50,857 nt of DNA, taken from NCBI GenBank assembly GCA_001938485.1, contig MQRK01252507.1, positions 141,021-191,877 on the forward strand, given 5' to 3'. Positions 1,520-50,521 of this stretch are shown here, one piece after another; positions within the stretch are counted from its first letter, which is position 1, and every line of letters starts with the position of its first letter. The notes beneath the pieces were generated by a model, which saw only the letters and a program-made list of their open reading frames with translations, searched no databases and had not been told where the DNA came from. The DNA comes from Girardia tigrina. Taxonomy: Eukaryota. The position numbers were made by a program, and so were the translations under genes.

Positions 1520-1664
1520 TGTGCGATGAGATGATAATCGAAAATAATAATCTCGTTAATTCGATTTTTATATTTTGTTTAAATATTTCGGTCTTTGTGA
1601 AAAACGTGTGTTTTCTATTTAATATAATTTAGGAACGTGTTATTCATTGTCATTCTCTACAACA
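1520..1664 (+). repeat. 5' LTR (145 bp)
   Basis: TGTGCGATGAG...CTCTACAACA, repeated at 3202. Confidence 0.95.
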
Positions 1665-1677
1665 AGCTATCCGGACA

Positions 1678-1840
1678 ATGTCGAACATGAAATTGATCCT
1701 TGATTGCCTCGAGAAATTCAAAGGGAATCAAACGTGGGAACTATGGAAGAAGCAATTCGTTTTATTGACGTCGATGCAGCAGATAAAGGATGTATTTGTA
1801 TTGATGCCGTTCGTGTTGAGTGGATCGGCTCTCAATATAT
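1678..1840 (+). pseudogene. gag: gag N-terminal fragment
   Basis: MSNMKLILDCLEKFKGNQTWELWKKQF...MPFVLSGSALNIY, a retrotransposon gag pattern, fused by deletion to RNase H. Confidence 0.75.
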
Positions 1841-3201
1841 ACATGGTTGAGGAAAAAAGGCGATTCAAGGCATATAAATATCGCTGAGCTGGAGGCGGTC
1901 GTGAAAGGGCTTAATTTGTGCGCGAAATGGGGAATGACGGACATCACGATAAAGTGTGACAATAAATCAGTAGTCTCCTGGGTGAATGACGTGATCACAA
2001 GTAAATCTAGGTTGAATACGAGTGCCTTTTCAGAATTGCTTATCAGACGGCGGTTATCAATCATTAAGGCAATTTGTGATGATTTTAACATAATGATAAA
2101 GATAAAGTTCGTAGCGAGCAGTCTGAATAAAGCGGATGAGATGACGAGGATATCGAAGGCATTAACTAAAAACGTATGCTGCGTGGCCACGACAAGTGAA
2201 ATTGAGAGATTAGATAACCTTCATAAGAAATGCCATTTGGGAGCGAAATGAATGAAATTTCTCTGTGGGATTGAAAACATTCAAGTAACGGATAAGGATA
2301 TCACAAACATGATTTCAAAATGTCAAAAATGCCAGTCAATTGATCCCGCACCGGTAAAATGGAATCACGGTTGCGTGGCCGTAAGGGAGAATCGGTATAG
2401 ATTGGCAATCGATGTGACAAAATACAACGACAGGAAGTATTTAAGCTTAATCGATTGTGGACCATTCAGATTTGCAATTTGGAAAGAAATTGGTGACGAA
2501 AGTTCATACTCCATCTCCACGGTAATAGATTCTATATTTTTTGAACGCGGAACCCCCAGCGAATTGTTAGTAGACAATTACACCACTTTTTATTCAAAGG
2601 AGTTTGTTGAGCTTTGCAATCGATGGGGAGTAGAGTTAATTTATCAAGCGAGCAATCGGCCTGGTGGGAACGGGATCGTTGAAAGAAACCATAGGACGAT
2701 CAAAAGAATTGCGGCGAGATCAAAAATTACAATTGCAGAAATGTATGGTGGTACAACAATACGCCATCGGAGAACAAAGAACCACCGAGTTGGATGATAT
2801 ACAGTTATAAATGTATGAAACCCGTAAGCCAAAAAAAGTGACAATGAGATAGAGGGCAGTACAAAGGGTACAATGTATTGTGATTATCAATTAGTCTGGG
2901 TGAAACCAATGGGAAGCACAAGGTGCACGCAACAATGGTTAAAGGGTCAAGTATTGAAAAAATTATCATACTGTAAATATTTAGTGGATTGTAATGGGTC
3001 GAGGTTCCCTCGGCATGTTGCTGATTTACGGCCGAGAAGAGTCGAATGCGAGCACGTGAAGAACACAGCTTTGTCTTGGGACACAGAGTCAGAAGTCGAT
3101 GAACGAGCGACTACTCATATGAAGCGTGTGCGAAGAAGGCCTAAATACTTGGATGACTACGTCATAGATGGAGATTCGTGTACGGACGAATCTGGTGGGG
3201 A
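1841..3201 (+). pseudogene. pol: pol remnant: RNase H C-half plus integrase
   Basis: HINIAELEAV...KCDNKSV...NKADEMTR (RNase H); H-x3-H...C-x2-C; LAIDVT, LLVDN and NGIVERNHRTIK (DDE core). Stops and frameshifts present. Confidence 0.9.
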
Positions 3202-3336
3202 TGTGCGATGAGATGATAATCGAAAATAATAATCTCGTTAATTCGATTTTTATATTTTGTTTAAATATGTGAAAAACGTGTGTTTTCTATTTAATACAAT
3301 TTAGGAACGTGTTATTCATTGTCATTCTCTACAACA
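3202..3336 (+). repeat. 3' LTR (135 bp)
   Basis: Matches the 5' LTR except for a 10-bp deletion and one substitution noticed by eye. Confidence 0.95.
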
Positions 3337-19312: not shown

Positions 19313-20050
19313 CAGTGGAATCTCTTTATCATGAACTTTTTTATAACGAAATTCCGTCTCTAACGAAAATTTCTTTAGATCCCTGCTAAATCTAACTTAA
19401 ATAAGCATAAATAAATCCGTTTAAAACGAATTTGTCTATAACAACATACGTTTTAAGGTCCTTTATAGTGGAAACTCTTTATAACGAACTTTTTTATAAC
19501 CAAATTTCGTTTATAACTAAAGTTTTTAAGATTTTTTTAATCTCTCGTAAATAAGCATAAATAATTCTCTTTATAACGAATATGTTCTTTTATAACGAAG
19601 TTTCAAAATTTTCAAATCAAGTAAAAATATTACTAAACAAAACCTCGATGACATATCGACGATTCATAGCTATTCAAAAGGCTTAATGTTTATTTGAGTA
19701 ATTGTCTAAGGTATTAGCCATTATTAGTCTTTATTCAAACACAAATATAAAGATTAATCTAATAAACTCTTATTTAATTATTAATAAATTATATATATAT
19801 ATATTTATCATTTATGTCTAGAATTCAAATCTTTGTTACTAAAAAATGTCTTCTATAAGACATTTAAAGCGAAAAAAAGGACAAAAAAGTAAGAATAATA
19901 CAAGTAGTTCAAAGAAACATGAAAAGAAGGAGATGTTGCTACAAATTTTGAGATTTCACCAAGTACACTTTCAACTATATTGAATCAAAAAGATTAAATT
20001 ATGGGCAAATGAACAAGAAGCGGTTTTTTTTCTAAAAGGAAGAAAATCAG
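19313..20050 (+). mobile_element. Tigger/pogo element, left part (TIR plus CENP-B/psq HTH)
   Basis: CAGTGGAATCTCTTTAT terminus with TATAACGAA subterminal repeats; ORF remnant from 19846 ...KKVRIIQ...DVATNFEISPSTLSTILNQKD...KRKKIR. Confidence 0.85.
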
Positions 20051-20520
20051 ATTAGTGGAATATTTACAAGACCTTTGCCTAATATCCTTTTTCTTTCAAT
20101 CATTTTTCTTGTGTTTGTTATATATTTTTTTCCTCTTATTCTTATATCCGCGCTCTCTATAATATTAATATATCTTTCAAAATCATTTACAAGATATTTT
20201 AGGGGAATATTTCTAATATTTACTATCTCGTTATTTCCTATAAGAAAATTTAGAATATTATCCGTAAGATAATATTTTTTATTTTGATAATACAAAAAAT
20301 ATTTATTTTCAAAATCCATATCAACAAAAAATATTTTTCCATTTAATTGAATATATTGATGATGAGCATATTTTTCATTGTCTAGAGGATTTATATATCC
20401 TGTTAAAGGACGAAGTTCTATATCAAGATTATTTAAAAATGCAATTTCATTTAAAATTGGTAAATATGGTGGAACTTCTTTTATTATATTTGTGTTATTA
20501 ACTTTAAATTCAGTCCCCAA
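20047..20520 (-). CDS. Polinton-like hypothetical protein (likely the truncated continuation of 20572-20955)
   Basis: 157-aa ORF ending ..ILGKGLVNIP that runs into Tigger DNA at the deletion junction. Confidence 0.5.
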   Translation of the reverse strand: MGTEFKVNNTNIIKEVPPYLPILNEIAFLNNLDIELRPLTGYINPLDNEKYAHHQYIQLNGKIFFVDMDFENKYFLYYQNKKYYLTDNILNFLIGNNEIVNIRNIPLKYLVNDFERYINIIESADIRIRGKKYITNTRKMIERKRILGKGLVNIPLI

Positions 20521-20571
20521 TTTAGTTGATAAATCCTCTAAATACTTTTTTGCTTGTGCTATTATAATATA

Positions 20572-20955
20572 TTATAAATTATAATCTTCCGGTGATTGAG
20601 TCATTAGCTCTGTTGAAATTTTATTGATTTCTTCCTGAATCTCAGTGAATTTTTGATTGAATTGCTCATAAAAAGATTTCGATTTTATGTTGTCATAATT
20701 TTTGATATCGACTTCAATAAATTTTTTTAACTCGTTTTCGTTGTTTAATATTTTATCTTTTAACACCTGAATTCTTTGAGTTATTGGTGCTTGCATCGAT
20801 GAAATCAGAGGACTAAATAATTGTTGAGCTGTTTGCTGGAAATCAAATTGTCCGCTTCTTCGCTCTAATTCCTGGCGATTATACTCATTTACATCAGCTA
20901 TTTTTCTTTGTAATCCAACTCGTAATTCTTCAATATATTGTTTATGTGGGTTCAT
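20572..20955 (-). CDS. Polinton-like hypothetical coiled-coil protein
   Basis: 127-aa ORF; QQLFSPLI resembles the L-F-x-P-I motif of Polinton accessory or structural ORFs; A-rich start context. Confidence 0.55.
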   Translation of the reverse strand: MNPHKQYIEELRVGLQRKIADVNEYNRQELERRSGQFDFQQTAQQLFSPLISSMQAPITQRIQVLKDKILNNENELKKFIEVDIKNYDNIKSKSFYEQFNQKFTEIQEEINKISTELMTQSPEDYNL

Positions 20956-21410
20956 TTTTTAGCTTTATTATTTTTTTATCAACCTTCGGTATCATTTTCA
21001 CCAAACCTTTGGAAATCTTTTTTATCCCATTACCTTGTTTTTGTAATCGTAATTTCTCTTTCTCTTCTTGTTTTTGTTTTTCACGATCTATTTTCTCTTT
21101 TTCACGCTCTTCTCGTTCCTGTTTAACATTCATTTCATGAAGAATTTTAGCGCGTAATTCTTCTTCTTTCAATTTTGCTTTCATTCTTTTTTCCTCTAAC
21201 TCCCATTCTGATTTTTGAGGTTTATTGTGATAATAATTTTCTGAGGTCTTTTAACGATTTTTTTATTGAATTTCTCTCGAGCCTCTTTCTCTTTTTTAAT
21301 TCTTCTGTTAATGATTTTAAGTGTTCATAAAATCTGTTAGCTGTTCTGGGATTTTGGGGTAAATCCTCTTTATTTTCTTTTTTCTTTCTAGGCATTTTTT
21401 GGGATAAAAG
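20942..21410 (-). pseudogene. Polinton-like K/E-rich hypothetical protein (broken ORF)
   Basis: MPRKKKEN... (within 21222-21434) plus the co-oriented 20942-21184 fragment; highly charged. Confidence 0.4.
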
Positions 21411-21619
21411 GATTTTTGTTACCAGAGGTAACAACCTTCGGGATTTCCTATTTTCTATTAGGATCCCAAGGTTCTAAATACAATCCTTTTCCATCAAATC
21501 GACATTTCAATTTTCCGCCTATTTTCTTATTTTTTGATAATAATGATTTCTTATTTTTTGCTGATTTAGATGATAAATTTATTTGTTCGTGAAAAAATTT
21601 TTGAAGTCCTTTACCAACA

Positions 21620-22247
21620 AAATCTTCAAGGTATAGACCATTTCCTTCTTCTTCATCATCTTCTTCTTCATCTTCTTCTGAATCTGAATCATAATCCTCA
21701 TCATAATCATCTCATTTTCCCCTTTTTCTTGATTTTTTGGCAAATCCTTCGCCTTTGGCGAGGTCTTTTCCCTTTTGCGATTTCACCTTTTTTCCCTTTA
21801 GTAATCCGCTTCCAGTCTGATCATCTGTATCATTTCCGGTATTTGTTGTGGGAGATGTATTTGTATTTTTATTTGTGCTTGGAGTTGTATTTTTCAAAGG
21901 CTTTTTCGGTTCTAAATCCTGTTTCAATTTCTGTTTTTCCAATTCGATTTTCTCGATTTCGGCCTTTTTTTCTGGGCATCCCGGGCAGATGAGACTGTTT
22001 TTGCAACTCCAGCTGCTGCACCTGTTAATCCACCGAAAATTGACATAATTAATGAAATTAGGGCTGCTAATGGTAAAATACCTCCAGAATGATATTTATT
22101 ATCATTAATTGGACCTCCTTTCTTTTCTATTTTTTTAATTTTTTTCAACATTTCACGATTAAGATAAATTTCACGACCATTTACCCTGATTAATCCAGGT
22201 GTTTCGGTATCTATCAATTTTCTTATTTTTAATCCGTCAGTACTCAT
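21620..22247 (-). pseudogene. adenovirus pX-like core or membrane-active protein (frameshifted)
   Basis: HSGGILPLAALISLIMSIFGGLTGAAAGVAKTV matches the GG-x-LP-L...GGAAG-x-AK-x-V motif of adintovirus/Polinton pX-like proteins; continues after a frameshift into a basic then acidic tail. Confidence 0.75.
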
Positions 22248-22298
22248 TTTTTGGTGAAAAGCATTTTTTGCTTTTCATCAATTACCTTTTATTTGGTT

Positions 22299-24695
22299 TT
22301 ATCGTCTTTCAGAGCCGCCTCTCAATTCTTCAACAATGGTTATTTGGGAATTTCGAATATTCATTTTTAGTGTAACTTCTTGTAAAATCAAACAAAATAT
22401 TTTATCTTGAAAGTTTACATCTTTATTAATTACAATTGTCACAACAACATTATTGATAGCCATGGTTTTATCAATATCAGAAGTATCGAAACAAATAATT
22501 GGGTATAAACTTCTCCAATCTCTTAATGATAATAATGGTGCTTTATCTTGAAATCCGCGACAAACTTGAACATAAGAATTATATGTCATAATAATCGTTA
22601 TTATTTTTATTGATTACTGTAAAATTTGCTATTTTCACGTTTGCCAAAATAGCAAATCTTACATACAAATAAATGAAAGAGAAATAACTTTCTAACTACT
22701 CAATTAACTAACACAGCAATTAATAAAAAAAAAATAAATAAATAAATAAATATAACCCGTTCGTTGAGGAAAATTTATTCAGGATTACAAACATTAGTGT
22801 CCAAAAAAAACACGGTAAGTAATTATGTATATCAAAATTAATTCATCAATTTTATTATTGATTTTTTATTTTCAGTAAATTATGTAAATTATAAGACGTT
22901 TCGTCAAAAACAATGTCTTTATAATCGTTTATGTAGGCATTATTAAACCAAAGTGCGTATTCCGGTTATTTTTCCGATTCATTGACTCTGTTAAAATTCT
23001 TTAAGTTAATTTTTAATTTGGATAGAGCTCGAACAATGATCGTAGTTGAAATTTCGAAATTGTCAGCATAAAATATTATATACATATTTAATTGAAAACT
23101 TTTAAAAATATCAAATTTGGATTCATTTGATAAAATCATTTGATTATAAAGAGATTCCTTATTTCTGTAGTTCGCATATCTCACACAAATATGATTGATT
23201 ATTTCTGCAATGAGCCTTCAATGTTTATCTATCGGATCCAACCACACGAAAAATATCGATTATCTGAATATTGAAATTCGTCCTCAGTTTCTAAATAATG
23301 TCTTTACCAAAAATTAACATAGTCCCGCAATTCACATTTAAAGCAGTTAGATAACTTTTCAGTTTTTCTTCGATATCTTCCAACAATAAAAATATTTCAA
23401 ACATAACAACAAATGAGCACCAACACACACATTTGACCAAATACAAAAGGTACTAAAAAAATATACAGACTCAAAAATAAAAAGAAAGTCTAAATCAAAG
23501 ATCGTTCTGAGAGAAGACTTGAAATCCGCGACAAACTTGAACATAAGAATTATATGTCATAATAATCGTTATTATTTTTATTGATTACCATTGGTTGAAT
23601 GGGATAATATTCATTATTCAATTTCAATTGAATAGTGAAATCTCCTGTGCCGTCCATGGTAAATAATGAATTATTCGATTTATATTCCGAAGCTGATTTC
23701 TTGAATCCAAAAATAATATATCTTGGTAAATATTCTAAATAGGAAACATTCCATGAGAAAATTTTTTGATTAGATAACAAGTATTCCATGGTCATTCTGC
23801 GCAAGAAATCAACATAAATCGGTTTATCTTTAAGACTTAATCTTTCAACTAATTCACCATATGATTCGGCATTCAATTCTAATTGATCCATTACCAGCTC
23901 TAAAGAATTGATTTGAATTGATCCTTTTGTATTATTATCTCCAATATTTTGTAAAAAGAAAATATTTGCGTTATCAACTTTGCGAATAGCTGTGAATTCA
24001 ATGAAAACGTTATACAAAATTCGGTTATAATTCTGTAAAAATCTAAATAAATGTTTAAGTGAGAAGCAGCCTTTGAATTTATTTTTCCCATGATATTGTA
24101 ATTTTCGAACAAAATAACCCGAATTAGCATATTTCATTTCACCTTCAACTCCCGCTACTGCATCTGCTGCCACTACTGCCGGATTTGCATTTGGATTTGC
24201 TACTACTGCCGCTTTTGGTACTACTGGAAAAGCTTTTATTTGTAGATCTTTATGATCGGGAATAAATCCAGTTATTTCACCGCATGGGACATAATTCTGA
24301 TCTTTTGAGACATATCAGATGCGATTCCGGGATTATTGATCGTTTCAACAACATGAGCTCATAATTTTAATGACATTGATGAGAATAATTTCGGGAAAAA
24401 ATTCGTTTCAAGAATTGGTCTTTTTGTTACAGCTTCATCTAAATCTTTTAACTCGATTTCATAAACTAATTTAGCGTTACAAATATCTATTGGATCTGGT
24501 TGTTTGCGATAATTGGAAAACAATAGGACCATTTTTATTTTTGTTTTCAGTTGATCCGGAAGTTGGACATATTCTTATTAGGTTTGTTTTCTTTAAAACA
24601 TGAGAAAATTCCTTATTTGAATCTAAATTCAAGATTCCTTGGGGTACGAGACCTGAGACTAATTGACTAACTGGTTTTTCGAAAGTTGTTTCCAT
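22299..24695 (-). pseudogene. major capsid protein (double jelly-roll), interrupted by a 900-bp insertion and frameshifts
   Basis: Colinear Polinton MCP motifs: NKNGPIVFQL, FFPKLFSSMSLKL..VETINNPG, NSGYFVRK..FSLKHLFRFLQNYNRILY, PRYIIFGFK, LNNEYYP, then after the insert PLLS..YPIICFDTS. Confidence 0.85.
22618..23517 (-). mobile_element. 900-bp insertion (probably a decayed Penelope-like fragment) flanked by a 71-bp direct repeat
   Basis: 22547-22617 equals 23518-23588. The minus strand shows a weak GIY-YIG-like remnant near 23350 and a GAAACGTC hammerhead-like remnant near 22895-22925. Confidence 0.7.
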
Positions 24696-24705
24696 TTTTA
24701 AATTC

Positions 24706-26192
24706 CTAATTTTTTTGTGAAGGTATCTTTGATTTTTGTAAATCTTGTTCATAATAACGACCAAATATTATAGCGCCTGATAAATCTCGTAATTTATAAG
24801 TCACTGGGTATTCATAGTCCAGAACTTTGGCGATTTCATATAATTCTCTTGTCCATTTTACCTCGTAACCTTTGATATAATTTCTCTTTTTTCGCTCTGC
24901 ATCCGTTAATAATGATTTGGCAATGAAAATTCTTACCTTATCACCGATTTTGAATTTTGATTTCAAATTTTTATCCTTATCATAAGCTTTTTCGGGAATT
25001 TTTCTCACTGGAAAATCGGGTATCTTATTAAACATAACATCATTCGGAGTCTGTTTTGTAGAGCTATGAATTTTATTATTATATTCATTAATTATTATAT
25101 CCAATTCTTTCTGATTAATCTTTTTTCTGATTTTTTACGGGTAAATAAGCGATATATTTGGGATTTTATTGTTTTATTAAATCTTTCAATAAAAACAGGT
25201 TTCTCTTTTACATAGTATAATTTTATATTATTTTTCTCACAAAATCGTTTGAAATCTCCAGTTTGGAACTCAGCTGCGCGATCAGTCCAGAGATAATTTG
25301 GAATTACATTTCCAGCTTCATGAATAATTTCGCGAAAAGCTTTTAATGTTGCTGCAGATGATTTATTCGGTAATAATTTATAAAATCCGTAAAGAGAATA
25401 AAGATCAATAACAGTTAGAATTGGAAACGGGACTGAAGTTGATTTAGGATTTTTAGGTATTTTTAAATTTGTAATTTTCTCAACTATTTCATCTTGTTGA
25501 TTTTCAATATATTCCCTGGTTAAAAATATTAAATCAGCAGACCAGATATGATTCGGCTGATAAACATTTATTTTGAGAAAAGTTTTATTTTTATTATGTG
25601 GAAAATGTAATTTTCTAACTAATTGATCTTCTTGGGATGTTAAATTTTTTTCATGAATTTTACTTTTATAATGTTTATCTTTTAACTTGATATTATAACT
25701 TTTTACACAAGTTTCACAGTAAAATTCGAGAACCTTCGGTTTTCCTTTTTCATCAATATTACCACCAAATACAATTTTACTTTTCATTATGAAATTAATT
25801 AGAAATCTTTCAAATTTTTGTCTTAATTTCAGATCTTGGAGTTGATTTATATCGTGAATTAAATTTATATCAGCCAAGTGTCTATCACGAATATCATCGC
25901 TCCGATATGCTAAATTATGACGATAACACGCTTCATCGAGGCCATCAACAGGCTCATTTTCTTCTCCTAAAGGTTTATCGGTATTGGGATCTAATCGAAT
26001 ATCCAATCTCGTTAATGGCCCACAATAATTTTTACCCGGTAAATGTAATTCACTGTATTTTGTTTTCATAAAACTAGGAATATATTTTGCATAATTAGCG
26101 AGATTTTGTTGTATGTCAGAACCAATTTTGATTTTATTCATTTTTTGATTAAATTTCATCAAAAACCTTCGGTAAATAATAAAAAATCTCAA
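24706..26192 (-). pseudogene. PLA2 / zinc finger / rve integrase fusion (one frameshift near 25100)
   Basis: LHLPGKNYCGP...PVDGLDEACYRHNLAY (parvovirus-type PLA2); CETC..HYKSKIH (zinc finger); IWSADL, LWTDRAAEF and IERFNKTIK (DDE); C-terminus YNNKIHSS..GDKVRI..KGY..WT.ELY..TYKL.DL.G...YYEQDLQK, typical of Polinton integrase. Confidence 0.93.
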
Positions 26193-26307
26193 CTATATCC
26201 TGTTGAATTTTATTCTAATCACGAATACAAAAGAGATAAAATGTATGTTTTTTATTGAAATATTAAATAAACCCTTCTAATTTCAAAACCATTTGTAAGC
26301 AAGCATT

Positions 26308-27304
26308 TTATTTGTGATATACATTTTTCCATTTTAATAAAATTTCCCTTCGGGTAGCACCTTTGGTGCTAAGTGTATCTTTCTCTTCATCTTCACTACA
26401 TTCTTCTATTACTATTTCTTCTTCTTTGAATATATTTTTATAAATTTTTTTCTGGGTACGGTCATAATAGATATAATTATGCTTCTCATCATTCCAGTGA
26501 TCCATTATTTTCTGTTTATATAATTCGGTACAACGCTCATTAAACATGAATAAATCGTTGAATATATAAGATTTATCCCGTTTTCCCAGTTCGAAAAAGA
26601 TGAAACCATTACTATTATTCCGGATAGAATGTTTATCCAATCCATAAAAAGTTTGGGAAATATAAATAGTATTACAATTATTATGTCTTCCTCTGGTAAA
26701 GTAAGATTTCATTATTTTCTGATCAGAAAGGTTAACAACATCATCGAAAATGATAAGATTTTTAGCGTCTTTGGGTAACGAATCACAGGGAACAATCTGA
26801 TTTGGATCACTTGAAAATAGAACGGAAATCGCTTTTTCAGGGTCTCGGATTAAGTATTTTAATTGGTTTTTAGTGCTAAAATTATTAGTTATATATCTCT
26901 TATACGCATAAACCAGATATTCCGGAGGAGGAACATATTTCTTATCAGAAATGTTTCCTAATTCCTCTTTTATCATGTCAAAAAGCATTTCTTGCTTATC
27001 AAAAATATCGAGTATTCCGGCTTTTGATAATGCTGATCCGTCCTCAAATCGAAATCCATTTGCAATGACTTTCAATGACTTGATCAATTGTTGTGGAATA
27101 AAAAATTAGATTATTGAAATCTAAGAAATTATCTTCCAGCAACATTTTGGTTAATAAAACATTTTTTCCACAACCTGATTCACCAATAATTAAAATTCGA
27201 AAATTTTTCGGGAATAATTTATTTTCGAATTTGGATTCGTACATGCGTAAAATATTTAATTTTCCAAAATTCTTTTTGGAAACCTTTGGAAAATCTTTAG
27301 TCAT
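26308..27304 (-). pseudogene. A32/FtsK-like DNA packaging ATPase (frameshift near 27070)
   Basis: Walker A ILIIGESGCGKN, Walker B LIIFDDV, arginine finger/sensor RGRHNNCNTIYISQ, and IRNN. Confidence 0.93.
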
Positions 27305-27907
27305 TTTTAAAGTTATTTTGTTTTTTTATAAAAATGAGTCAAAAAATTTACTTACGAACAGAATTATCTGGATAATATTGATTATGATGAGTGGAATTCG
27401 GATGAAGAATATTATTCGGATTATTCAGATGATATGGATGATGATGAATTGTACAATTTTATTTTAATTGTTAAGAAATGTTTAGATAAAAATAATAAAA
27501 AACTAAAGAAAATAGACGCAGAGAAAAAGAAACTAAAAAAAGGAGAAAGAATGAATTAAAGAAATATAATAAACTTGTAAGAAAAATTAACTTGCATACT
27601 TCCGGTTCTCAAGATGAAGATGAGAAAATTCATTTTCTACAAGAAATTTCAAGAATTTATATAGAACAAATAGGTAAATTAGATAAATTAATTAACGAAT
27701 TATCGGATAAAAAAATAAATCTTATGAGTAGATTTGTTAATATAGATTGACTTGATTTGTCTTGATTAAATTTTAGGAGCATTAAATAATCTTAAAGTTT
27801 TAACATCTTTTTCTTCAGTTTTACATATTTTTTGATAATTATTAAATAAAGTTTTTTCATTTCCACTAATACTTCTTCATCTTCATCACTTTCATAATCA
27901 TTTTTTT

Positions 27908-28216
27908 CTATTTTGTTGTAATATTCCTAGACCTTAAAAAAATTTTTTGTGTATCAGGGTTAGATTTCATTATATCTTTGGCTAAACTCAATTCTTCTTT
28001 TGTTTTATTATGTTCTTTTTTTTCTTTTATATAATTTCGAGTTGTTTCCTTTAAAGAATTTCCAACCACTTGAATAACATTTTGAGAAATAAAAAGTTTG
28101 CGTATTAATTGTGGTCCAATTTCAATTTTATCTCCAGGGTTCATCTTTTTATATTCTAATATATCTTTCAATTCGTTATCTTTTTTAGAAGCTGCGAAAA
28201 TTTCTTTGATATCCAT
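27908..28216 (-). CDS. Polinton-like hypothetical protein
   Basis: 102-aa ORF, co-oriented and tightly packed, with an A-rich start context. Confidence 0.55.
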   Translation of the reverse strand: MDIKEIFAASKKDNELKDILEYKKMNPGDKIEIGPQLIRKLFISQNVIQVVGNSLKETTRNYIKEKKEHNKTKEELSLAKDIMKSNPDTQKIFLRSRNITTK

Positions 28217-28226
28217 TTTTTATTTT

Positions 28227-28667
28227 TTATATTTTAGCTTTTTCAACTTTATCTAATATTTCTTCCATATCAGAATCTGTTTCTTCTTCTTTTTTTCCTT
28301 TTCCTAATATATTTGATCTCTTTAAAGATTTATTTACAGATTTTTTAATTACATTTTTCACAAGATCATTTTCCATTTCTTTATGATTTTCCTCAATATT
28401 TTGTTTTGATTTATTAGTTTTACTTCTTGTTTTTCGAATTGGAACAGAATGTCTATAAAAAGATTGAATATCATAATCTTTCATTATACGATAAAATTTA
28501 TAAGAAGAAATATTAATTTTTTTACATATTTCATTATGTTTTATACCCTGATTTTTATATTTTATATATTCCGTTAATATTTCTTCATTATTTAATGAAT
28601 TAAAATTCATAACATTTAATTTAACATTTTTTTCCAAACATTCAAATGGGAACTCTCGTAATTTCAT
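28227..28667 (-). CDS. Polinton-like hypothetical protein with a probable helix-turn-helix
   Basis: QGIKHNEICKKINISSYKFYRIMK fits an HTH pattern. Confidence 0.55.
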   Translation of the reverse strand: MKLREFPFECLEKNVKLNVMNFNSLNNEEILTEYIKYKNQGIKHNEICKKINISSYKFYRIMKDYDIQSFYRHSVPIRKTRSKTNKSKQNIEENHKEMENDLVKNVIKKSVNKSLKRSNILGKGKKEEETDSDMEEILDKVEKAKI

Positions 28668-28958
28668 TAAATAATCAAGATCTAAAAACTATTTTCATTC
28701 ATTTTATCTTAGGAATAATATGAATTGAGTATTGAAAAATAAAATTATTATGGAAAAAAAATAAAAAAAATCGTGATGATAAAATAAACATAACAAAGGA
28801 ACAAATCATATATTTCTTTTACTTTTCAAGTGAAAATTAAATTAAATTAATCGAGAAACAAAAAATTAAAAATTCAAGACTTAGTCAAACTAAATTGTTT
28901 ATTTATTTATTTTTAAAATTTATATTTTTTAAGAACCGAAGGTGCTCGCTCTTAGAAT

Positions 28959-29255
28959 TTGAAAAATATATTAATTTTGTTTTTAAAGAAAATGACTGAA
29001 AAAATTTTCGATCTGAATAAAAAAATGATTCCAACACCTGATCATATAAAGTTATCTGATGAACTTTATAAAAAGCTCTTATGGGAGCTAGAAATAGCAC
29101 GAAATACCCGATATAAATATTGGGAAAAAGAAATATTTCGCAGGGATCTAAAAGACGAAAAGATCTTTTATAGAATCTTAGATAAAAATCTGAGAAAATA
29201 TTTAATAAAACGTAATAGAGTTTTTACGTATATTGTTAAATATCGCTCATTTTAG
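28959..29255 (+). CDS. Polinton-like hypothetical protein
   Basis: Small divergent ORF next to the terminal repeat region. Confidence 0.4.
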   Translation: MKNILILFLKKMTEKIFDLNKKMIPTPDHIKLSDELYKKLLWELEIARNTRYKYWEKEIFRRDLKDEKIFYRILDKNLRKYLIKRNRVFTYIVKYRSF

Positions 29256-29767
29256 TGTAGTTTTTTTATTAATTTAATAAAAATAAAAAAATATATAAAT
29301 ATTGTAAAAGTATTTTATATTGTATAGTAAAAGTAATGTATAAGTATTGTAAAAGTATTTAGCTAATTTCGGATTGGCTTTTAGCTACGCGATTTTTTCG
29401 GATTCCCGATTTTTATTCATTTTTATTATTAAATAATATGAATTTGAAAAATTGCAGATTTTTCGAATTTTGAAAAAATTTTGAAATTTTGAGAAATTTT
29501 AGAATTTTAGATATTTCAAAATTTTTGAATTTTGAAAAAAATTTTTCGATAATTTTTTATTTTGAAAAATTTGAAAATTGAAAAAATTTTATAAAAAATT
29601 CGCGAAAAAAATTTTATGATTTTTTATTGATTTACGAGCAAAAAATGGGTTTGGTGAAATTTTTCACCAAGTACTTTTTTTGGTCATAAAATCGATAAAA
29701 ATCGACTATTTTTTTAAATTTTAATTTTTAATCGCCCCTTGGCCTATAACAACAATTATCTATTACT

Positions 29768-29970
29768 GACATCGAGTCCAATCGTTCCAAATTCAGTATT
29801 GTACTGCTATCTTTCGTCGTCTTCTTCTTCATTTTGCAACAAAGCATAACGTATCAAAATGCTCAATTAACATCCTAGATGATATGAGTATGTGTAATGG
29901 TGCCTGGTTGGAGGTGACACCCGAAACAATCCAAGGTTGTTTTGATCATTCAGGCTTTATGAAAAAGAAC
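29768..29970 (+). mobile_element. Tigger/pogo transposase C-terminal remnant
   Basis: QSFQIQYCTAIFRRLL...SINILDDM...AWLEVTPETIQGCFDHSGF, the pogo AW-x-x-V-x-x-x-TI-x-x-CF-x-x-x-GF motif. Confidence 0.85.
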
Positions 29971-32580
29971 TGTATTAAATTAACTATTTAAATAAACAAA
30001 AATAGCGAGAAAGAATATATCAATATTCATTTCATTTCTAGAAGGTTTTAAGGGATTTCGAACAGTCTCACAAGCTCTCGAAAGGACTCATAGGAGCCCC
30101 ATTGCCTACTCTAACTCCAACGCGCTCGGGACCAATCTAAAACTAACGAGGATAGTCGAGCTAGACTATCCTCACAATCTTCTCCAAAGGTCTCGGCCGT
30201 ACGGGGTGTGGGTTTGCTAAGGGGTTTCCTTTCGAGTTATATGTTAGATACAACCGCGGTCGTAACACTAGGTTACAAGATGACGAATATGAGATTGAAT
30301 CGTAAGATCAAAACTAAAGTAAACTCCATCTAATAAATAATGTGTTAACAAAATAATAGAATATTAAACTAAATTACTTACTAGTTAATTTTTACAAATA
30401 TCTTTAAAATTAAATCCAAAATAAAGTAAAACAACATTGTGACGATATTATGATAAATTAGAAATTTGTGACAGTATTATGTAAATAATATTTTGAAGTT
30501 TATTTAAATATTCAGAGATTTTTGATACATCAATCTGAATTAAATAGTGTATTATTATCGTCGCCTTGTTTATTTTATATATATAAAACAAGCTTTCGTG
30601 GCTTTGGAGAGAATAGAGAATTTGAAGATTACTGATGGGGTGACTAAATTCAGTGGACAAGAAGATGTCAAAAACTGGATCGATCGATTAAAAACAGCCT
30701 TAAGAATATTCTGGAGGGAGTCAAAATCAGCCTCACTCATTCCTCTGTTCCTGACTGGTGAAGCATATTCTAACTGGAAGCTACTCGATGAAAGCACAAA
30801 ACAAGATCTTGGTACAATAAAAGTCACCCTGAGGAGAGTATATAGCAAGTAAAAAGCACAAGCATGGACGGAGTTGAATAACCTGTCATCATTGTTGAGT
30901 GAGTAACCGGATGTACTTGCAGAAAAAATATCCACGCGGTTGGCGGTGGCCTGTGGAGGGAAGGCGGTACCTGAGGAGGTAATTTCCTTGTTTTTTCTTG
31001 ACTCTTTCCCCACAAATGTGAGAAATCAAGTGTTGGTGTTACATGGTGAAGATATGATAAAAACAAGATAATATCAACAACCTAAAGCGTACTGTTCAGA
31101 GCAAACGGATCGCCACAATATGCCATGGCAGGAGTATAGGAAGAACCAGACAACAGATTGAACATCGCAAGAACCCCCAGCAGTGATACGGTGCTATTGT
31201 TGCAATAAATTGGACCAAATTCGAAGTAACTGTAGAGTAAAGTGCTTCAACTGTGGAAAAATTAGCCATCGTAAGTCTAAATGCTTTAATCTTTCGGGAA
31301 ACGGGGAGAATGAATCTGTCAATTTGCAGAATTAGATGACTGTCTCCCTGTGGGTTTGTGTGTTTGACCTCAGTCTCAATTGCTAATATTAGAAGAGTAG
31401 CAATAATTGATACCGGCTGCAGCATATCTCTAACTACGCGGTGTTGTGTGGTGGAATTAATGGTAAAAAAGAGATAGTTAAATTTATATTGATCAATGGT
31501 GAGTGATCAATATACAGTGACAGTTATGTGAATATGGTAAGTGTAGTTTGTGAGAGGGGGGACTGCAGATGAGTAATGTAAAAGCATTTATAATGTATGT
31601 GCTTCCATTGTGGTGTTGAAATGGTTCTATGACTTGATATTATAACTAAACACAAGATGCTCGGGATAACCCTGACATAACATTAAAAGTGGTATCAACT
31701 GACAAATCTTTGCCGAGTTTTAAAAGAAACAAAAAGAGGGAATCCGTAGCTAACGATGATGTCGACTTCCTCGCGGAGTGGAATAGTGGCCAGTGGAAAG
31801 TCAAGTGGAAATGGAAGCCAGATAATAGTGGTGCGAAAGAATGCTTGGTTACTCGAAATTTGTGAACGATGGAGATAAAGAAGAATTCAACAGAAAAATT
31901 CAATCATGGATTGATGAGGATGTGCTAGTCAATATAAAGAAAGCAAACACGGGTTAATTAGAAGATATCTGTCACTCATTAGTATGATGCAAGAGAAAGG
32001 AAACATTATGAAAATAAGACCCGTATTTGATTACCGGGAGCTGAAAAAATTACTAGAATCGCATCCAACCAATATGTGGAGATAAAATTAGAAAGTAGAG
32101 GCAGTCGGGACAGAATATTGATGTCCTTGATCTCAAGAGATAATACCTACAGATTCACGTTGATTAAAACTTATGAATACATCAAGCAGTAAGATGGTGA
32201 GGTCAAACGTTCTTACTTACTCGTTTAGAATTTGGTTTATGCTCAGCACCAAAGATTATGACGATTATTGCAGAATATATCATCAATTTAAATGATGATC
32301 TCAAGCGAGGTGTATTTCGGGGTTAGAATGCGAAATCTACATACCTTTGTTTGGAAACTAATAGGTCACCTACACATTGGCAATTGTAGTATTGTTGGAA
32401 ATGTTAACGAGATCATAGGAGATGCCACTTGGTTGAGACCCAAGGATAACCTAAATCACATAAATCGTAGCGAATTGAACAATGCCAACAAGGGAATAAA
32501 CTTAGCAGTAAAATGGGCTGTGCACAGACTGATCCTAAAGGTGGATTCAAAAACAGTGTATGGATGGCTCAACTCAATAA

Positions 32581-34572
32581 CACTGTGTAACAATTACCTA
32601 CCATGACGAGCAAGCGAGCTTGTAAAATCTCCCACGACTCCTTTTGCTATATATACGGGTATTATATAGCTCCAAAACAACAAAAATATGCATTTTCAAC
32701 TGGTAGTAAATTATGCAATGTTTATGAGGCTTACTTTGGTGTTCCTGTCACTGATCAAGACAAATCATGGGCGCCACATTTAAGTTGTGATACTTGCCGG
32801 TCAAATTTAGGAAAATGGTTAAATGGTAATCGCAGCAGCATGCCTTTTAGAATCCCTCGGATATGGAGAGAGCCAACAAATCACCACGATGATTGCTATT
32901 ACTATATGGTAGACATGTCCAAATTTTAAAATCCCAGAGATCGAAAAAGTCTTATTTATCCAAAATTCCAATCATCTTCAACCCCCGTGCTTCACTCTAA
33001 AGAATTTCCAGTACATCAACCGCCACCTCTAAAAGCCATCTCTGACGATGAGTTTCCACATACAGAAGATAGTGACGCTGACGTGGATTTTGTTGAAAAA
33101 AGTTCAAAGAATGTCCCACCCTTTCCTAATCAACAGGAGCTTGATGACTTAATAAGAGTCATAGGACTTACGAAATCAAATGCTGAACTACTTACCTCTC
33201 GTTTGAAAGAGTGGAATTTGCTGGATCCAACCTGCAAATCATCAATTTATCGAAAATGACATGAAAGTTTCTCGAAGTTTTATACGATGAAAGACTCGTT
33301 GTGGTACTGCTCAGACGTGACTGGGCTTAATCAAGAAATTGGTTAAGAACATCATCCAAGTTATGGTGGCTAATTATCGACAGTTCAAATAAAAGCCCAA
33401 AGGCTGTTTTACTTCATAACGGCAATATTTTCCTTTCTATCCCAATAGCCCATTCCGTCCACCTCAAAGAAAAGTACGGAAATGTGAAAATCTTGTTACA
33501 AATGATTGATTACGACAAATATAAGTGAGAGGTCTGCGGAGACTTTAAGATGATTGGATTTTTGCTTGGATTACATGGTGAATATACAAAATATTTCTGC
33601 TTTCTTTGTCTCTGGGACAGTCGGACTACAGATCAACACTATGCTCTAAAAAAATTGGCCCCTTAGAGATGCACTTCTTCCAGGAAAGTACGATGTCATA
33701 CACCCGCTATTAGTCTGAAAAGAAAAGATCTTGCTGCCGCCATTACATATAAAGCTTGGACTTGCGAAACAATTTGTAAAAGCTTTAAATCCCAGTGGAT
33801 GGTCTTTCCAATATATTAGCAAAATTTTTCCCAAGTTGTCTGAAGCTAAAGTCCAAGCTGGTGTATTCACGGGCCTTCAAATTGGACTTATGTTGGCGTC
33901 AGAGGACTTGGAAAAGAAGATGACTCCTAAAGAAAGGAATGTCAGGAGAGCCTTTAGGAAAGTTGTGGAAGGATTCTTGGGAAATAAGAAAAGTGACGAG
34001 TACCAACTACTGATCAGTGATTTGCTCAAACACTTCGAAAATCTGGGTCACAGAATGTCGGTGAAACTTCATTCGCATCTACATTGGCTTCGGGAAAACA
34101 TTAGTGACTTTAGAGAGGAGCAAGGGGAACGCTTACACCAGGATATGCAAACAATGGACAAAAGGTAGCGTGGGATACAGCAATGATGGGAGATTATCTT
34201 TGGTTTTTGATTAGAGATGATAGCACACAACATAAAAGATAGTCTCGTTCAAACCTTCATTTTTGATTGTTCACACATAACTTTACAATCTACTGTTATG
34301 CTATTCTTGTTAGTTTGCGCTTCTTTGCTATTAATATTTTGAACTATAACTTCTTGTGGAACATTTTCTGGTCATTACAACAAATCTGATACGAAAAAAA
34401 ATAAAAAAATGAGAGGTTTTTTTGCTAAATTCTTTTTTTTTAAATTCCTAGGTTAATTAGGAGACGGAAAAGATAAACCGATAACAAATTCAAAACCAGT
34501 ATGTCGAAAAGTATCAAAAAATTCTGAAAACCGTTTGCTGGAAAAAATTTCGAAAAATTTTGTTACATAGTG
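32581..34572 (+). mobile_element. Chapaev3 (CMC) DNA transposon
   Basis: TIRs CACTGTGTAACAA / TTGTTACATAGTG, 3-bp TSD TAA on both sides; removing it restores the host RNase H frame. Confidence 0.88.
32603..34260 (+). pseudogene. Chapaev3 transposase, multiple stops and frameshifts
   Basis: DQDKSWAPH..C..C, WREPTNHHDDCY, LPPLHIKLGLAKQFVKAL and EEQGERLHQD motifs. Confidence 0.88.
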
Positions 34573-43038: not shown

Positions 43039-44715
43039 ATGAGTAAATCATCCAAAGTATGGCTGCATGCCAAGCGCATAGGTGACAATAGTGCTAAGTG
43101 CATGCTTTGTGATCTTATTCTGTCAGCAAAAGGCGGCAACACATTTACTCTACGTCACCATCTCATTGGATCGCAATAGATTCATTTGAATGAGACGGGG
43201 AAAAGTATGACTTCAAACATAACTGAGTTCATGGTAGCAGCAAGACCGAAGTTAACCAAATCCAGAGCTTTAAATATTGATAAAAAAGTTGCCAAATTTA
43301 TTGCACGTGATGCAAGGCCCGTCAGCATTGTAGAACGCAAAGGATTCATTGATCTTTTGAAGTTTGTGGAGCCCGACTATAAACTGAAGTCTCGAATAAC
43401 AGTAACTGCACTAGTTAAGACGGAGTTTGAACACCAAAGAAACATACTTAAAACAAGATTGGAGAAGGCATGTTATATTGCCTTCACAACAGATATGTGG
43501 ACATCGATTCAAAATTTAGCATATATGTGCGTAACTGTACATTGGTTGACCAATGATTGGGAACTGCAATCGGCCATTTTGCAGACCAGAGAATTTACTG
43601 AGCGCCATACGGGTGAAAATATAAACGTGCGCTTAAAAGGATGTGCTGAGAAGTGGGGAATACCAACTAACAGAATAGCAGCAACAGTACATGATAACGG
43701 CTTGAATGTCAACTTGGCAATCTCTATTTTGGATGACTGGCCGGACCAGCGCTGTTTCGTACATACACTCCAGCTGGCCATTTGCCTTAAAATTCAGACA
43801 ATTGCCAAGATGCTTGGTGCTGCTAGACAATTGGCTGCCCACTTCAAAAAAAGCACAGTAGCAGTAGAGGCATTGCGAAGCAAACAAACTGTTCTTAAGA
43901 CCAACAATGACAGTGAAGACATTCTTGAGGTAGTCATCGATTGGTCAACAAGATGGAACTCCTCTCTTGACATGCTTGAGCGCTTGGTGAAACTTCGTTG
44001 GACCATTGGAGCTGTGCTGTCGGATCGAAATGTTACAGAGCGCAGAAATACTGCGACATTGGAAATGTCAGATGAAAACTGGTTGCTTTCACAGGCTGTG
44101 ATAATCATTGTAAAACTATTTAAGATGTTGACAATCATATCTTCCGGCCAGAAATATCCGTCATTATCAGCAGTCTATCCACAGTTATACATTATTTGGA
44201 GGCATATACAAGTTGTACAACCAGATGAGTGCACCGCTGTGCAGCAATGTCGATCTGCAATTACAGTTATTACAATTATAACAGCGCTACTATCCTGCTG
44301 GATACAACAAATTGAATGCGGCAAAGGCTTCTGTCTTTCATCCACGATATAAAGTATTGAAATTCTTTGCAGAGCCTTTTCGTGATGAAACATACGCGGA
44401 AATTATATATGAACTGGAAACGATTGTCGTTGCAAATATTGACGACGAACCGAGATTGTAGAACCTGAACCCGTGAAAGCTCTGAATAACCATGTAAACG
44501 TTTTTGATGATCTTGTTATGTTGTGTTCAGCAGATGATCGATTTGTAGGTTTGGATGAGTTAACATCCTACTTGTCCGAGACACCATTGACGGTGAAAGC
44601 TGATATTCTTCAATATTGGAATGATAAGAGCAAGCGTTATCCAAAACTAGCTTTTCTGGCTCAAAAATATTTGTACATACCAGCGACATCTGTACCCTCG
44701 GAATGTGCATTTTTT
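43039..44715 (+). pseudogene. hAT (ZBED1/Ac-like) transposase
   Basis: BED finger (SKVWLH..AKCMLC..GGNT..LRHHL), FTTDMWTS, VHDNG, CFVHTLQL, TRWNS and the dimerisation motif YLYIPATSVPSE; stops and frameshifts present. Confidence 0.93.
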
Positions 44716-45152
44716 GTTGTCTGTTTTATTTTTTATTGCCTATATATTGATTTGCTTAAAATAAAACATACAATAAAGCAACATGAATTTATTAACAAGA
44801 AATGTTGGGACATAAAAATAGCGTTCTATTTTTTATCGTCTATAAATAATAATCAAAACAACAACAAAAACAATGAATTGTTTCAAAAAAGTAAATTATA
44901 GATAGATTGTAGTTTATTAAAATTTTATAAAGTGAATATTATTATTTTTTTTAATTTTTGACCACAGCATTATGATTGATGTGATATGATTGAAGTTTTG
45001 ATCTGTAGTTAGTGATGAAAGTCATTTTCTTTGTACATCGCTTTTAACTTCAATTAACAAAAAACATTTGAAAAAACATACTTTATTTTGAAAAATTTTC
45101 CGAAATTGCGTACATTTAATAATAAAAAGTTTGGACGACGGGTACCCGGGAG

Positions 45153-45195: not shown

Positions 45196-45813
45196 GATAC
45201 AGTAGCTAATACCCCTCATCAAATAAGTAACAAATCATACCTTTTTTAATACTTTTTTATTTATTTTTCAAAATTTATAAAAATATAAAAAAATAAAATA
45301 ATAAATATAAAATGATAATGAATATTTTGTTTTTGTTTTTGTCATTTTTTTCTAAAGTAAATTTGAATCCAGATAATCAATGAAATAATATTTTAATAAC
45401 AATAACAAGTATCTATTTTATTCTTGCGATATGCTCAATATAATTTAATTGTTTTTTTCTATTTTAAATGATATTTTATTTGTTCATTGGTTCAATTTGT
45501 ATTCGTATTTTTGGTTTATTTTTTCGTTATGTTTAGATTATTGTCACGATTTTACTTTTTTAAATGTGAAATAATTGCATTTTTTTTCATAATATTATTG
45601 TTATATAAATTATTATCTATATAAATTATTTTATTTTTGTCATTGTTAAATATTCATTTGTTGTTTTTTCGTTTCCAATTGTTTATTTCCAATTTAAGTG
45701 AAATAGGAAAAATCGTATTTCTAAAGATTGATGATTCTTGTTTTTCATTTTTCGTTTTTTTCGTTCGTTTCTTTTGTTATTTTTATTTTTCCAAACACTA
45801 ATAACAATAAAAA

Positions 45814-46720
45814 ATGGTGAAGAAAAGATTGAATATTTTAGACATGTACGAGTCGAAATTCGAGAACAAATTGTTCCCGAAAAATTTCCGCCTACTGATC
45901 GTTGGGGAATCGGAATGCGGAAAAATGTCCTGCTTTCGAAAATATTGCTGGAATATGGTTTTTTGGATTTCAATATTTATCTTTTATTTCAATTTTTTAT
46001 TCGACTACCATAGACGAGCCGGAATTGAATGTGTTCGCAAACGGTTTCCGTTTCGAAGACGGATGCTCGTTGACCAAGTTTGCTATTCGTGATATATTTG
46101 ACAAGGAGAAAATGCTGTTGGAAATGATCGAAAAAGAATTGGGAAACAGTAATGATAAAGATTACGTCCCGCCACCGGAATATCTGGTATACTCTTACAA
46201 ACGATATATCAATAATAAATTGAATCTGGATCACAAACGGTATTTGATTCGAGATCCTGAAAAAGTGATTTCCGTCCTGTTTTCATCACATCCCAACCAG
46301 ATCGTCGCATGTGATTCGTTGCCTAAAGACGCGAAAAATTTGATTATTTCCGATGACGTAGTCAATTTGTCAGATCAGAAAATAATGAAGTCGTATTTCA
46401 CTCGCGGACGTCATAAAAACTGTAATACCATATACATTTCACAAATGTTTTACGGTTTGGATAAACATTCGATAAGGAATAACTCAAATGGATTCATTTT
46501 TTCGAGCTCGGTAAACGAGACAAATCTTACATATTCAGTGACATATTTACTATTGGCGATACAGAACGTTATAAATCGGAAATCATTCGACATTGGCAGC
46601 GAAAAAAATACAATTATATTTATTATGAAAAAAAAAAATTTATAAAAATTTATTTACAGAAGAATAAATAGTAATAGAAGATCAAGATAGTGTTTTAAGT
46701 CAAGACAAAGATGAAAGTGA
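45814..46720 (+). pseudogene. A32/FtsK-like packaging ATPase, copy 2
   Basis: LLIVGESECGK, LIISDDV and RGRHKNCNTIYISQ; long stretches match copy 1 at protein level; frameshifted. Confidence 0.92.
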
Positions 46721-46861
46721 TTGAAAAGAAATATTTATGCTATCGAAGAAAAAAATAAAAAAATTTTCATATTTTATCTTATCAGATATTCATGACTAAG
46801 GAATTAACTTGATATTGATTAGATTTTTTATTATTTGGAAAAAAGATAATTTAGCTAAAAA

Positions 46862-47917
46862 ATGGTTGAACAAGTCAATTTTTTTTCAACAAGCAAAAAG
46901 AACGGTGGAGATATTCAAGCGAATTTGGCGCAATACAGTCGATATATTCCTGGTTTCGTGAAAACGAAATACGGAGAATTGCATTTGCCAGGGAAAATTT
47001 ATTGCGGACCACTGACAAGATTGGATATCCGATTGGATCCCGATACTGATCAACCAATTGATCAACCAAGGATGAAAATCGTCCAGTTGCTTGTTATCGT
47101 CATGATTTGGCATACAGATCCAATGATATTCGCGATCGGCATTTGGCAGATATCAATCTGATTCACGATATCAATCAGCTTGAAGATCTATCACTTCGGA
47201 ATAAATTTGAAAAATTTTTGATAAATACCGTTATGAAGGGGAAAATTGCTTTTGGAATAAAAAGAACAAGAAGAAAAATATGATAAAATCTTTAATAAAA
47301 TAAAAAGAAAAAAATAAAAGATAAAAATTCTGATGAACAACAATTGGCCTTGGAGCTTCATCGTGATCATCGGGACTTAAGACAATTCATCCCGATCCAA
47401 GCGAAAAATTTAAACGAAATTTGGTCTGCAGATTTTACATTAATCGATGTCCCATAGGGAGCGAAAAAATGCCATTAAAGCAACAACAATTCCAAAAAAG
47501 AAGAAAAACAAGAAAAATAAAAAGAAAAATAAAGAAGATGATAATGATGAAGAAAGAATTGTATATAAATATTATATTTTAACAGTATTCTCGTTATGCA
47601 TTTTCCAAATTTTTGGTTGGTAAATCTGCAAAAATCGTAGCAGAAGCTTTCAAAGAAATTTTTATTGAAATAGGAGATAAAATGATTGAATTGAAAAAAT
47701 ACGATATTCAAACTCCAAAACTTTTATGGGTAGATGAGGGAAAAGAATTTACTGGTAAAGATTTTAACAAATTTTTTCTCAAAGAATACAATATGAAAAC
47801 TATCATGTGAAAGAGAAATCGGTTTTCATCGAACGATTCAATCGAACATTGTAATCGAAAATATATAAATTGTTTACGGAAAAAGGAGAAAAACTTATTG
47901 ATGAAAAAGAATTAGAA
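46862..47917 (+). pseudogene. PLA2-integrase fusion, copy 2 (broken, truncated)
   Basis: ELHLPGKIYCGPLTRLDIRL, CYRHDLAY, LALELH..EIWSADF, LWVDEGKEF and IERFNRT. Confidence 0.9.
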
Positions 47918-48743: not shown

Positions 48744-49328
48744 CACAAAAACTCCTTGGTCGCGCATTTAAAATAAATTAAATTCTCCCTAAGTTTAAAG
48801 TCATTAAATATTGAAATTGATAAAAGTTATAAAAAAGTGATTAAATTGAAATTGAAGTATTGAATAATAATTAAATTGAAAAAAGAGAATATTGAATAAA
48901 TTTGATTATTTGAATTTTATTGAATTGCGAAAAAACTAATTGATTGATTGTCCAATTGAGCTAGGTCTCGACGTATTAATATTTATAAGTTTCAGGGTAC
49001 AATTTGAGATTAAGTTTGGATTCGGGTATCAACGATTAGCTTCTGGTGAAAAAATTGTTTAATTGTGATTTATCCTTATTGATTTTTGTGATTTCAAAAA
49101 AAAATTTTTTTGTTGTTGTGTTCATTGCCTAAACTGAAATCGAATTGATATATTGTCTAAATTGAAATTGATTTATCTTTAATTGAATTTAATAAAATTA
49201 TTTTTGCATATTTTCTATATTCGTGCAACGCACTTTCACAAAACATGTGACACATAATAAAAAAACAAGATAATCAAGAAAACATAGATAATAATTCAAG
49301 AGACAATACACCTACACTAAGGCGAAAA

Positions 49329-50440: not shown

Positions 50441-50521
50441 TGTTGTTAGTTTGCTACGTTTAATGCTGGGAACAATTAATTGAATTGATGTTTGAAATAA
50501 TTCTGTTCAAGCAAATATATA

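Follow-up and report, generated by a model that had tools for sequence, protein, structure and literature searches.

The phospholipase A2 (PLA2)-bearing Polintons or Mavericks (Polintoviricetes) are characterized by a protein-primed DNA polymerase B (pPolB), an rve integrase, an A32 ATPase, a cysteine protease and a double jelly-roll major capsid protein (MCP), and are bounded by inverted repeats and target-site duplications, which in Polintons are 6 bp long. All of these features are shared by an abundant family of elements in the genome of Girardia tigrina, one copy of which is located in the stretch analysed here and designated as the window (50,857 nucleotides; assembly GCA_001938485.1, contig MQRK01252507.1, positions 141,021 to 191,877 of the forward strand). 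This copy occupies approximately window positions 20065–29767 and is, with high confidence, a decayed and left-truncated member of the polymerase-bearing Polinton (adintovirus) family. Taken alone the element is unremarkable, and the more interesting result is the link between PLA2 and integrase, which are encoded in one frame and likely form a virion precursor, from which the viral protease would release an entry lipase and an integrase; a probability of about 0.6 is assigned to this reading of the locus.

Mavericks, Polintons and adintoviruses are treated as synonyms in a 2026 preprint (10.64898/2026.06.19.733378), in which PLA2 is common in group 2. According to the accessible text of earlier publications, PLA2 of Polintons is either a separate gene or is fused to pX (PMC8502044, PMC5803895), the latter product being named PLA2X by Starrett et al. 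(PMC8502044), and the integrase carries a chromodomain; in contrast, in the window family PLA2 is joined to the integrase, pX is separate, and the chromodomain is absent. Polinton lipases were proposed to be packaged and to aid entry (Yutin et al. 2015, PMC4642659), and PLA2 was proposed to serve for crossing the endosomal membrane (PMC4642659, PMC8502044). The definition of adintoviruses, as worded in the accessible part of PMC11071296, includes PolB whose N-terminus bears an OTU-like domain, integrase with a C-terminal chromodomain, and a Hexon that BLASTp recognises reciprocally with reference adintoviruses, and in the same part -1 frameshifts are predicted for penton and hexon-adenain and not for integrase.

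The possibility that the PLA2-integrase fusion is unpublished was ruled out by the gene labels in the supplement of Buck et al. 2024 (PMC11071296), where two genes among 59 PLA2 entries are labelled PLA2-integrase. One of the two belongs to a close counterpart, Adintovirus nemertoderma6405 (Adinto6405; BK066529; PMC11071296; Alpha hexon and Alpha PolB), in whose deposited record PLA2 and integrase, judged by eye, share one frame with a Gly-x-Gly junction. In a comparison made by eye only, with no percent identity, its integrase has no chromodomain and ends where the family integrase ends; its Hexon, Penton, Adenain, and PacK resemble the family MCP, penton, protease, and ATPase, with motifs in common between Hexon and MCP; its Macc, Cah, Slatt, and P5669 resemble the family pX-like, coiled-coil, and membrane genes, and the PolB motifs are similar. 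Adinto6405 differs in gene order, in length (13.9 kb versus 16.6–19.9 kb), and in a VLTF3-like gene not seen in the family. Since this record without a chromodomain is filed as an adintovirus by the authors of the definition themselves, the written wording is applied loosely.

The initial annotation of the window element as an endogenous Polinton or adintovirus was well founded, as full copies of the family contain pPolB, rve integrase, double jelly-roll MCP, A32 ATPase, adenain-like protease, inverted repeats, and 6-bp duplications. Its further proposal of a host-lineage-specific, possibly undescribed family is not borne out at family level, because the same gene set is found in metagenomic contigs (35–44% identity) and, by eye, in Adinto6405. 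The best homologues of the fusion protein, MCP, and PolB reach 39%, 39%, and 44% identity, respectively, and none of them is named, while the best named PolB homologues reach 31–38%. The family is a divergent lineage of a known kind and not a new family.

The PLA2-integrase protein and its glycine borders

The fusion gene of the window copy (24706–26159, minus strand) is frameshifted near 25130, and the PLA2 active-site motif is altered. The PLA2 (E 1.5e-7) and rve (E 8.8e-7) matches in Pfam lie in the same frame, as had been annotated from the sequence. Its layout comprises a parvovirus-type PLA2, a Gly-Gly border, a C2H2-like insert, the rve core, and an SH3-like end, after which the protein stops; no chromo match was obtained in the window family. 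In the structure model of the fusion protein a helical PLA2 domain (rice PLA2 match with Z 8.0 and rmsd 4.7 over 97 residues, which is middling) is accompanied by a retroviral integrase core (Z up to 15.7 against the integrases of PFV and RSV) with the SH3-like end.

The two domains are in frame in all 18 host open reading frames (ORFs) examined; among the 68 environmental loci where PLA2 precedes integrase, 45 are likewise in frame. Of 41 host rows, in which some copies are counted twice, 40 retain the His-Asp pair of PLA2. Between natural copies with open frames, every gene tested is under purifying selection. The median ratio of non-synonymous to synonymous substitutions (dN/dS) is lowest for PLA2 (0.06), followed by integrase and ATPase (0.09 each), MCP and protease (0.17 each), and the others (0.24–0.35); 7 of 91 integrase pairs were unscored, and these ratios are biased downward because the copies were selected for open frames and query likeness.

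Only two Gly-Gly or Gly-x-Gly sites are common across the family fusion protein, one on each side of PLA2, while no such site is shared in MCP or protease and eight are shared in the pX-like protein. After exclusion of 7 of 29 PLA2-bearing proteins that contain no anchor motif, 20 of the 22 homologues that were scored had the glycine motif at the PLA2-integrase junction, versus 0.8% of background windows, and a separate count gave 36 of 39 fused loci. Adenain-type and virophage proteases are known to cleave at di-glycine, and the motif fits a predicted protease site. The protease itself, which is present in full copies only, has adenain as its best PDB sequence match (E 0.023, weak), and its catalytic His, Asp/Glu, Gln, and Cys are aligned with those of adenain and invariant.

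Several observations weigh against this assignment. The residue four places before the glycine motif does not match the adenain consensus, and the motif also ends PLA2 in 20 of 21 proteins without in-frame integrase. In published PLA2X proteins, too, PLA2 ends with the glycine motif (PMC11071296). Thus, the motif may be a mere structural domain end or a flexible linker.

A few host-genome PLA2 domains (L231, L232, L235, L240, and L241) have no integrase behind them, and in one case a glycine-rich stretch comes next, as in parvovirus capsid proteins; possibly these are endogenous parvovirus- or bidnavirus-like elements.

A predicted frameshift link in environmental relatives

The viral and metagenomic set included 98 loci, 30 without the PLA2-integrase pair and 68 with PLA2 directly ahead of integrase. 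Besides the 45 in-frame loci, the integrase is at -1 in 16 and at +1 in none, and 7 contain stops. In a motif-based recount without near-copies, in which a motif in the wrong frame served as anchor for L138 and L200 and both were kept as counted, the -1 versus +1 ratio was 12 versus 2 (p 0.013), and only 4 frame breaks were found inside the far longer integrase core in 85 loci.

Seven loci of one environmental Polinton clade possess an in-phase A-AAA-AAC heptamer and, after a spacer of 5 nt, a hairpin of 12 bp, with no methionine ahead of the integrase domain in the integrase frame; in retroviral Gag-Pol frameshifting an X XXY YYZ site is likewise followed by an RNA structure. The hairpin folds with z from -3.1 to -5.3 in the 7 loci, 96% of alignment cells are paired, and 4 pairs are changed on both sides. 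Among nine relatives fetched later, all three of the same clade (two of them distinct) carry the same signal, with open MCP and integrase frames. The candidate -1 frameshift loci are L187, L202, L216, L217, L223, L228, L230, and L260–L262, and their integrase carries a chromodomain. When compared with L228, the closely related locus L215 lacks 13 nt of the hairpin 5' arm and its PLA2 and integrase are fused in frame, which indicates that the shifted and fused states are interconvertible.

Other data reduce the strength of this signal. The hairpin covariation remains within the shuffle control, since 24–100 of 500 shuffles reach it, and the stem is also protein-coding. In four other -1 loci the slippery heptamer lies within a poly-A run and is not accompanied by a hairpin (z from -0.6 to 0.7); as such runs are prone to assembly errors, these loci could be explained in this way. 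Furthermore, in the linker of the window family the 6 of 18 copies looked at contain either no slippery site or unshared ones. Despite these objections the predicted programmed -1 frameshift in the environmental clade is quite probably real.

The frameshift was also considered for the window's own family and rejected, as PLA2 and integrase are in frame there, no slippery site is shared among the copies looked at, and the RNA-structure model of the cassette found no match in the window. The window element is therefore not credited with the frameshift. No -1 case was seen among 29 host-genome PLA2 loci, whose rows comprise 19 in frame, 2 at +1 (both representing one duplicated, decayed copy), 1 with a stop, and 9 without an integrase match behind. 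In the literature search, with most subscription journals outside its coverage, no description of a PLA2-integrase frameshift was found.

Two side observations belong to the environmental clade. In L191 (547–646) the hairpin is kept, while an in-frame UGA 8 nt ahead stands in place of the slippery site; in this single case either stop-codon readthrough or decay is possible. L260, L261, and L262 are Polinton contigs binned in bacterial or archaeal metagenome-assembled genomes, which is probably contamination.

An alternative is that the fusion is an incidental gene compaction in a truncated, otherwise ordinary Polinton, giving either an uncut intracellular protein or an integrase made from an internal start, with the integrase left unpackaged. 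Fused, shifted, and separate states are indeed scattered on the integrase tree (22 changes), which is a quick version with the host sequences on a long branch and from which no placement was drawn. The glycine motif is not restricted to fusions, and one -1 locus (L133) has a methionine just ahead of the integrase domain. On the other hand, the conserved slippery site with its hairpin and the missing integrase methionine would mean that one clade maintains the link actively, and the constraint on PLA2 equals that on integrase. Incidental compaction is regarded as an unlikely, though serious, explanation.

The model of a packaged PLA2-integrase precursor is somewhat favoured. According to this model PLA2 as a virion protein would help to cross the endosomal membrane, the tether to PLA2 would deliver the integrase along with the particle and allow incoming DNA to integrate at once, and the adenain-like protease would cut at the glycine motifs flanking PLA2, while in the related environmental clade the -1 frameshift would give much free PLA2 and little PLA2-integrase. 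This arrangement resembles retroviral Gag-Pol, where a virion protein is also extended into integrase in frame or by a -1 shift, with the protease release being predicted here; it differs in that the virus has a DNA genome, the carrier is a lipase and not Gag, and both frameshift and cleavage are predictions from the sequence. No paper was found in the literature search on packaged integrase in mavirus.

It is an even question whether a broad Polinton group follows such a Gag-Pol-like strategy, with the integrase made only as an extension of a virion phospholipase, packaged, and released by protease at glycine borders. The chances are similarly balanced that within this group a -1 frameshift would be used in some clades and an in-frame fusion in others, including the window family. 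If true, Polintons would, like retroviruses, integrate upon entry, and the frameshift would provide a compact and assayable sign of an infectious cycle; the question bears on integrase delivery and infectious particle formation in animal Polintons. The frameshift cassette of less than 60 bases and the glycine-bounded domains are amenable to reporter and in vitro cleavage tests. The new part, if real, is the frameshift link; the in-frame fusion already appears as a gene label in the PMC11071296 supplement.

The Polinton family in the Girardia tigrina genome

The first look at the genome gave 1813 candidate loci for ATPase (150 scored), 2257 for pPolB (91 scored), and 1149 for PLA2 (150 scored); these are not copy numbers, and the candidate loci of the family number in the order of one thousand. 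PolB was found downstream in 10 of 16 fetched ATPase-bearing regions (8 of 14 without two regions picked for their PolB match), and the 6 remaining regions stop at a contig end or at the end of the fetched stretch or are truncated. In full copies the order is inverted repeat, orphan ORFs, ATPase, PLA2-integrase, MCP, pX-like, coiled-coil, penton candidate, protease, a further coiled-coil gene, membrane protein, pPolB, and inverted repeat. The terminal repeats and 6-bp duplications expected from extended copies were found in every one of the seven copies with both ends, which are 16,642–19,872 bp long, have inverted repeats 84–100% identical, and are flanked by exact 6-bp target duplications. 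All seven duplications are GC-rich (4–6 of 6 bases) in a genome of approximately 30% GC, a hint that the family may prefer GC-rich targets.

The pPolB of full copies matches PF03175 (E 4.8e-11 and 6.1e-16). In L062, L079, and L040 it has a C2H2 zinc finger at the N-terminus and an insertion resembling endonuclease VII; no Pfam OTU match was obtained at E≤1, and by eye the Cys and His motifs resemble those of vOTU. The MCP model of a relative (pTM 0.72) matches PBCV-1 Vp54 and the Sputnik and mavirus MCPs with E from 4e-13 to 1e-11, as well as an adintovirus capsid model, so that the double jelly-roll fold ascribed to this gene at the outset agrees with structure prediction. A conserved gene of approximately 280 aa in full copies resembles the Penton of Adinto6405 by eye and is the penton candidate; against this assignment, Pfam and PDB sequence searches with it gave no match, and it relies on position and by-eye likeness.

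Some insertions are recent, the inverted repeats being up to 100% identical. Between sampled copies the lowest synonymous divergence (dS) is 0.08–0.45 by gene for pairs above the 0.02 cut-off, and the closest of 91 PLA2 pairs has dS 0.137. Considering this synonymous divergence together with purifying selection, even in the capsid and lipase genes, repeated integration from a diverse viral population fits better than one transposon burst.

The window copy belongs to a minor subfamily with 80–86% DNA identity, in which 4 of 15 regions continue into PolB and one copy is complete with both repeats. A second Polinton family of the same genome (G000:C188483:3864–20934; L073–L075) has another gene order and three tandem penton-like genes, and its PLA2 and integrase are likewise fused in frame.

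The truncated copy and its surroundings

The Polinton copy of the window is embedded in a Tigger/pogo transposon. The left end of this transposon and the start of its transposase gene, identified by genome family matches, are located at 19313–20064 (plus strand), where positions 19807–20064 are 96% identical to bases 116–369 of the Tigger copy L091; the C-terminal part of the transposase follows at 29768–30026 (plus strand), 97% identical to L091 bases 861–1119. Bases 370–860 of L091 (491 bp) are absent between window positions 20064 and 29768. The comparison with L091 supports the original suggestion that the left end of the Polinton was lost together with the middle of the Tigger. The right terminus at 29767 was placed correctly, and the proposed start at 20051 has to be moved, since the Tigger similarity reaches 20064 and the break lies at about 20059–20078. 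Beyond the point equivalent to the break the full subfamily copy has 9,444 bp more, its own gaps and insertions included. Probably, the Polinton would first have inserted into the Tigger, and then a single deletion would have removed its left end, taking about 9 kb of Polinton and 491 bp of Tigger. The surviving terminal inverted repeat and terminus (29340–29767, minus strand) match both ends of the full subfamily copy and show the AG-type start of full copies.

The left junction might instead be an assembly artefact joining the Polinton interior to a Tigger flank in a repeat-rich genome. The source assembly (1.43 Gb, AT-rich) is fragmented into 255,254 contigs, none of the contig pieces listed from two DNA runs spans the junction, and a small contig contains the terminal 657 bp twice in tandem. 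Such an artefact is nevertheless very improbable, given that the two flanks are parts of a single Tigger copy, with order and strand correct, and that no N gap is present at the junction. The small contig (L105, G000:C116681, 1212 bp) carries two head-to-tail copies of the terminal 657 bp of the window element, 99.7–100% identical, which represent either a duplication on another haplotype or an assembly loop.

No part of the family's PolB, protease, or penton was found in the window, just as had been noted for polymerase, protease, and minor capsid. Together with the MCP, for which a word-indexed search gave only three homologues, none of them named and the best at 39%, this could indicate a satellite-like Polinton lineage that lacks a polymerase by nature, or a virus family not yet described. 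Yet subfamily copies at 80–86% DNA identity run beyond the break into the penton candidate, protease, and PolB, the break falls in the middle of the coiled-coil gene, 491 bp of flanking Tigger are also gone, and Adinto6405 by eye contains the same gene set, leaving this alternative with hardly any credibility. Full copies and subfamily copies carry pPolB, and therefore the polymerase-less lineage is rejected; the gene absences result from deletion and not from biology, as the annotation had allowed. The window element is a caution against reading a single truncated copy as a minimal virus.

The ORFs of 20065–29767 are almost all on the minus strand, and the gene set and order read initially are upheld by Pfam and family comparisons, though frameshifts or stops disrupt each of the four main genes (ATPase, integrase, MCP, and pX-like). 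The leftmost gene (20065–20955, minus), recognized by tblastn with relatives, is a conserved coiled-coil gene of approximately 400 aa in relatives; coiled-coil coding was rightly noticed here, but the two leftmost ORFs are not separate genes and represent a single gene that is interrupted by a stop and truncated by the deletion. By eye it is like P5669/Adintoc3 of adintoviruses, and no informative match was found in Pfam or Atlas. It is followed by a Lys/Glu-rich ORF (20942–21184, minus), a putative gene with DNA similarity to subfamily copies and no Pfam match. The pX-like (Macc-class) core protein gene (21457–22247, minus) is frameshifted near 21950, and its identity is favoured by Adeno_PX matches in relatives, which are weak (E 0.36 in a family copy and 9e-4 in a metagenomic homologue).

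The MCP gene (22302–24695, minus; DJR-like_dom, PF21738, E 9.2e-9 in Pfam) is broken by frameshifts and by an insertion, a 900-bp host repeat at 22618–23517 with an exact 71-bp duplication on both sides (22547–22617 and 23518–23588). The A32-like packaging ATPase gene (26308–27316, minus) is frameshifted near 27078, and its call is sustained by Pox_A32 (E 8.6e-4 for the N-terminal piece in the window and 1.5e-8 in a relative). An orphan ORF at 27908–28216 (minus) is restricted to the window subfamily, with 50–74% identity in 3 of 15 subfamily regions and no Pfam match. The family-wide small ORF at 28227–28667 (minus) has homologues at 34–84%, and its helix-turn-helix character is a hint only, given by HTH_24 in one homologue (E 0.07), the window ORF itself having no Pfam match. 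Another family-wide small orphan ORF is located on the opposite strand (28992–29255, plus), with 52–88% identity in relatives and no Pfam match.

The Polinton family is represented in the window by a second fragment, with ATPase and PLA2-integrase, at 45811–47917 (plus strand), which is more decayed; it is 72% identical in DNA to the main copy and contains stops and frameshifts. Other decayed elements are located at window positions 1520–3336, 32591–34165, 43180–44900, and 49251–50480, and they include a long terminal repeat retrotransposon in which pieces of RNase H and rve are recognizable, a transposase of the hAT type, and ORFs that are gag-like or resemble transposases without being classified.

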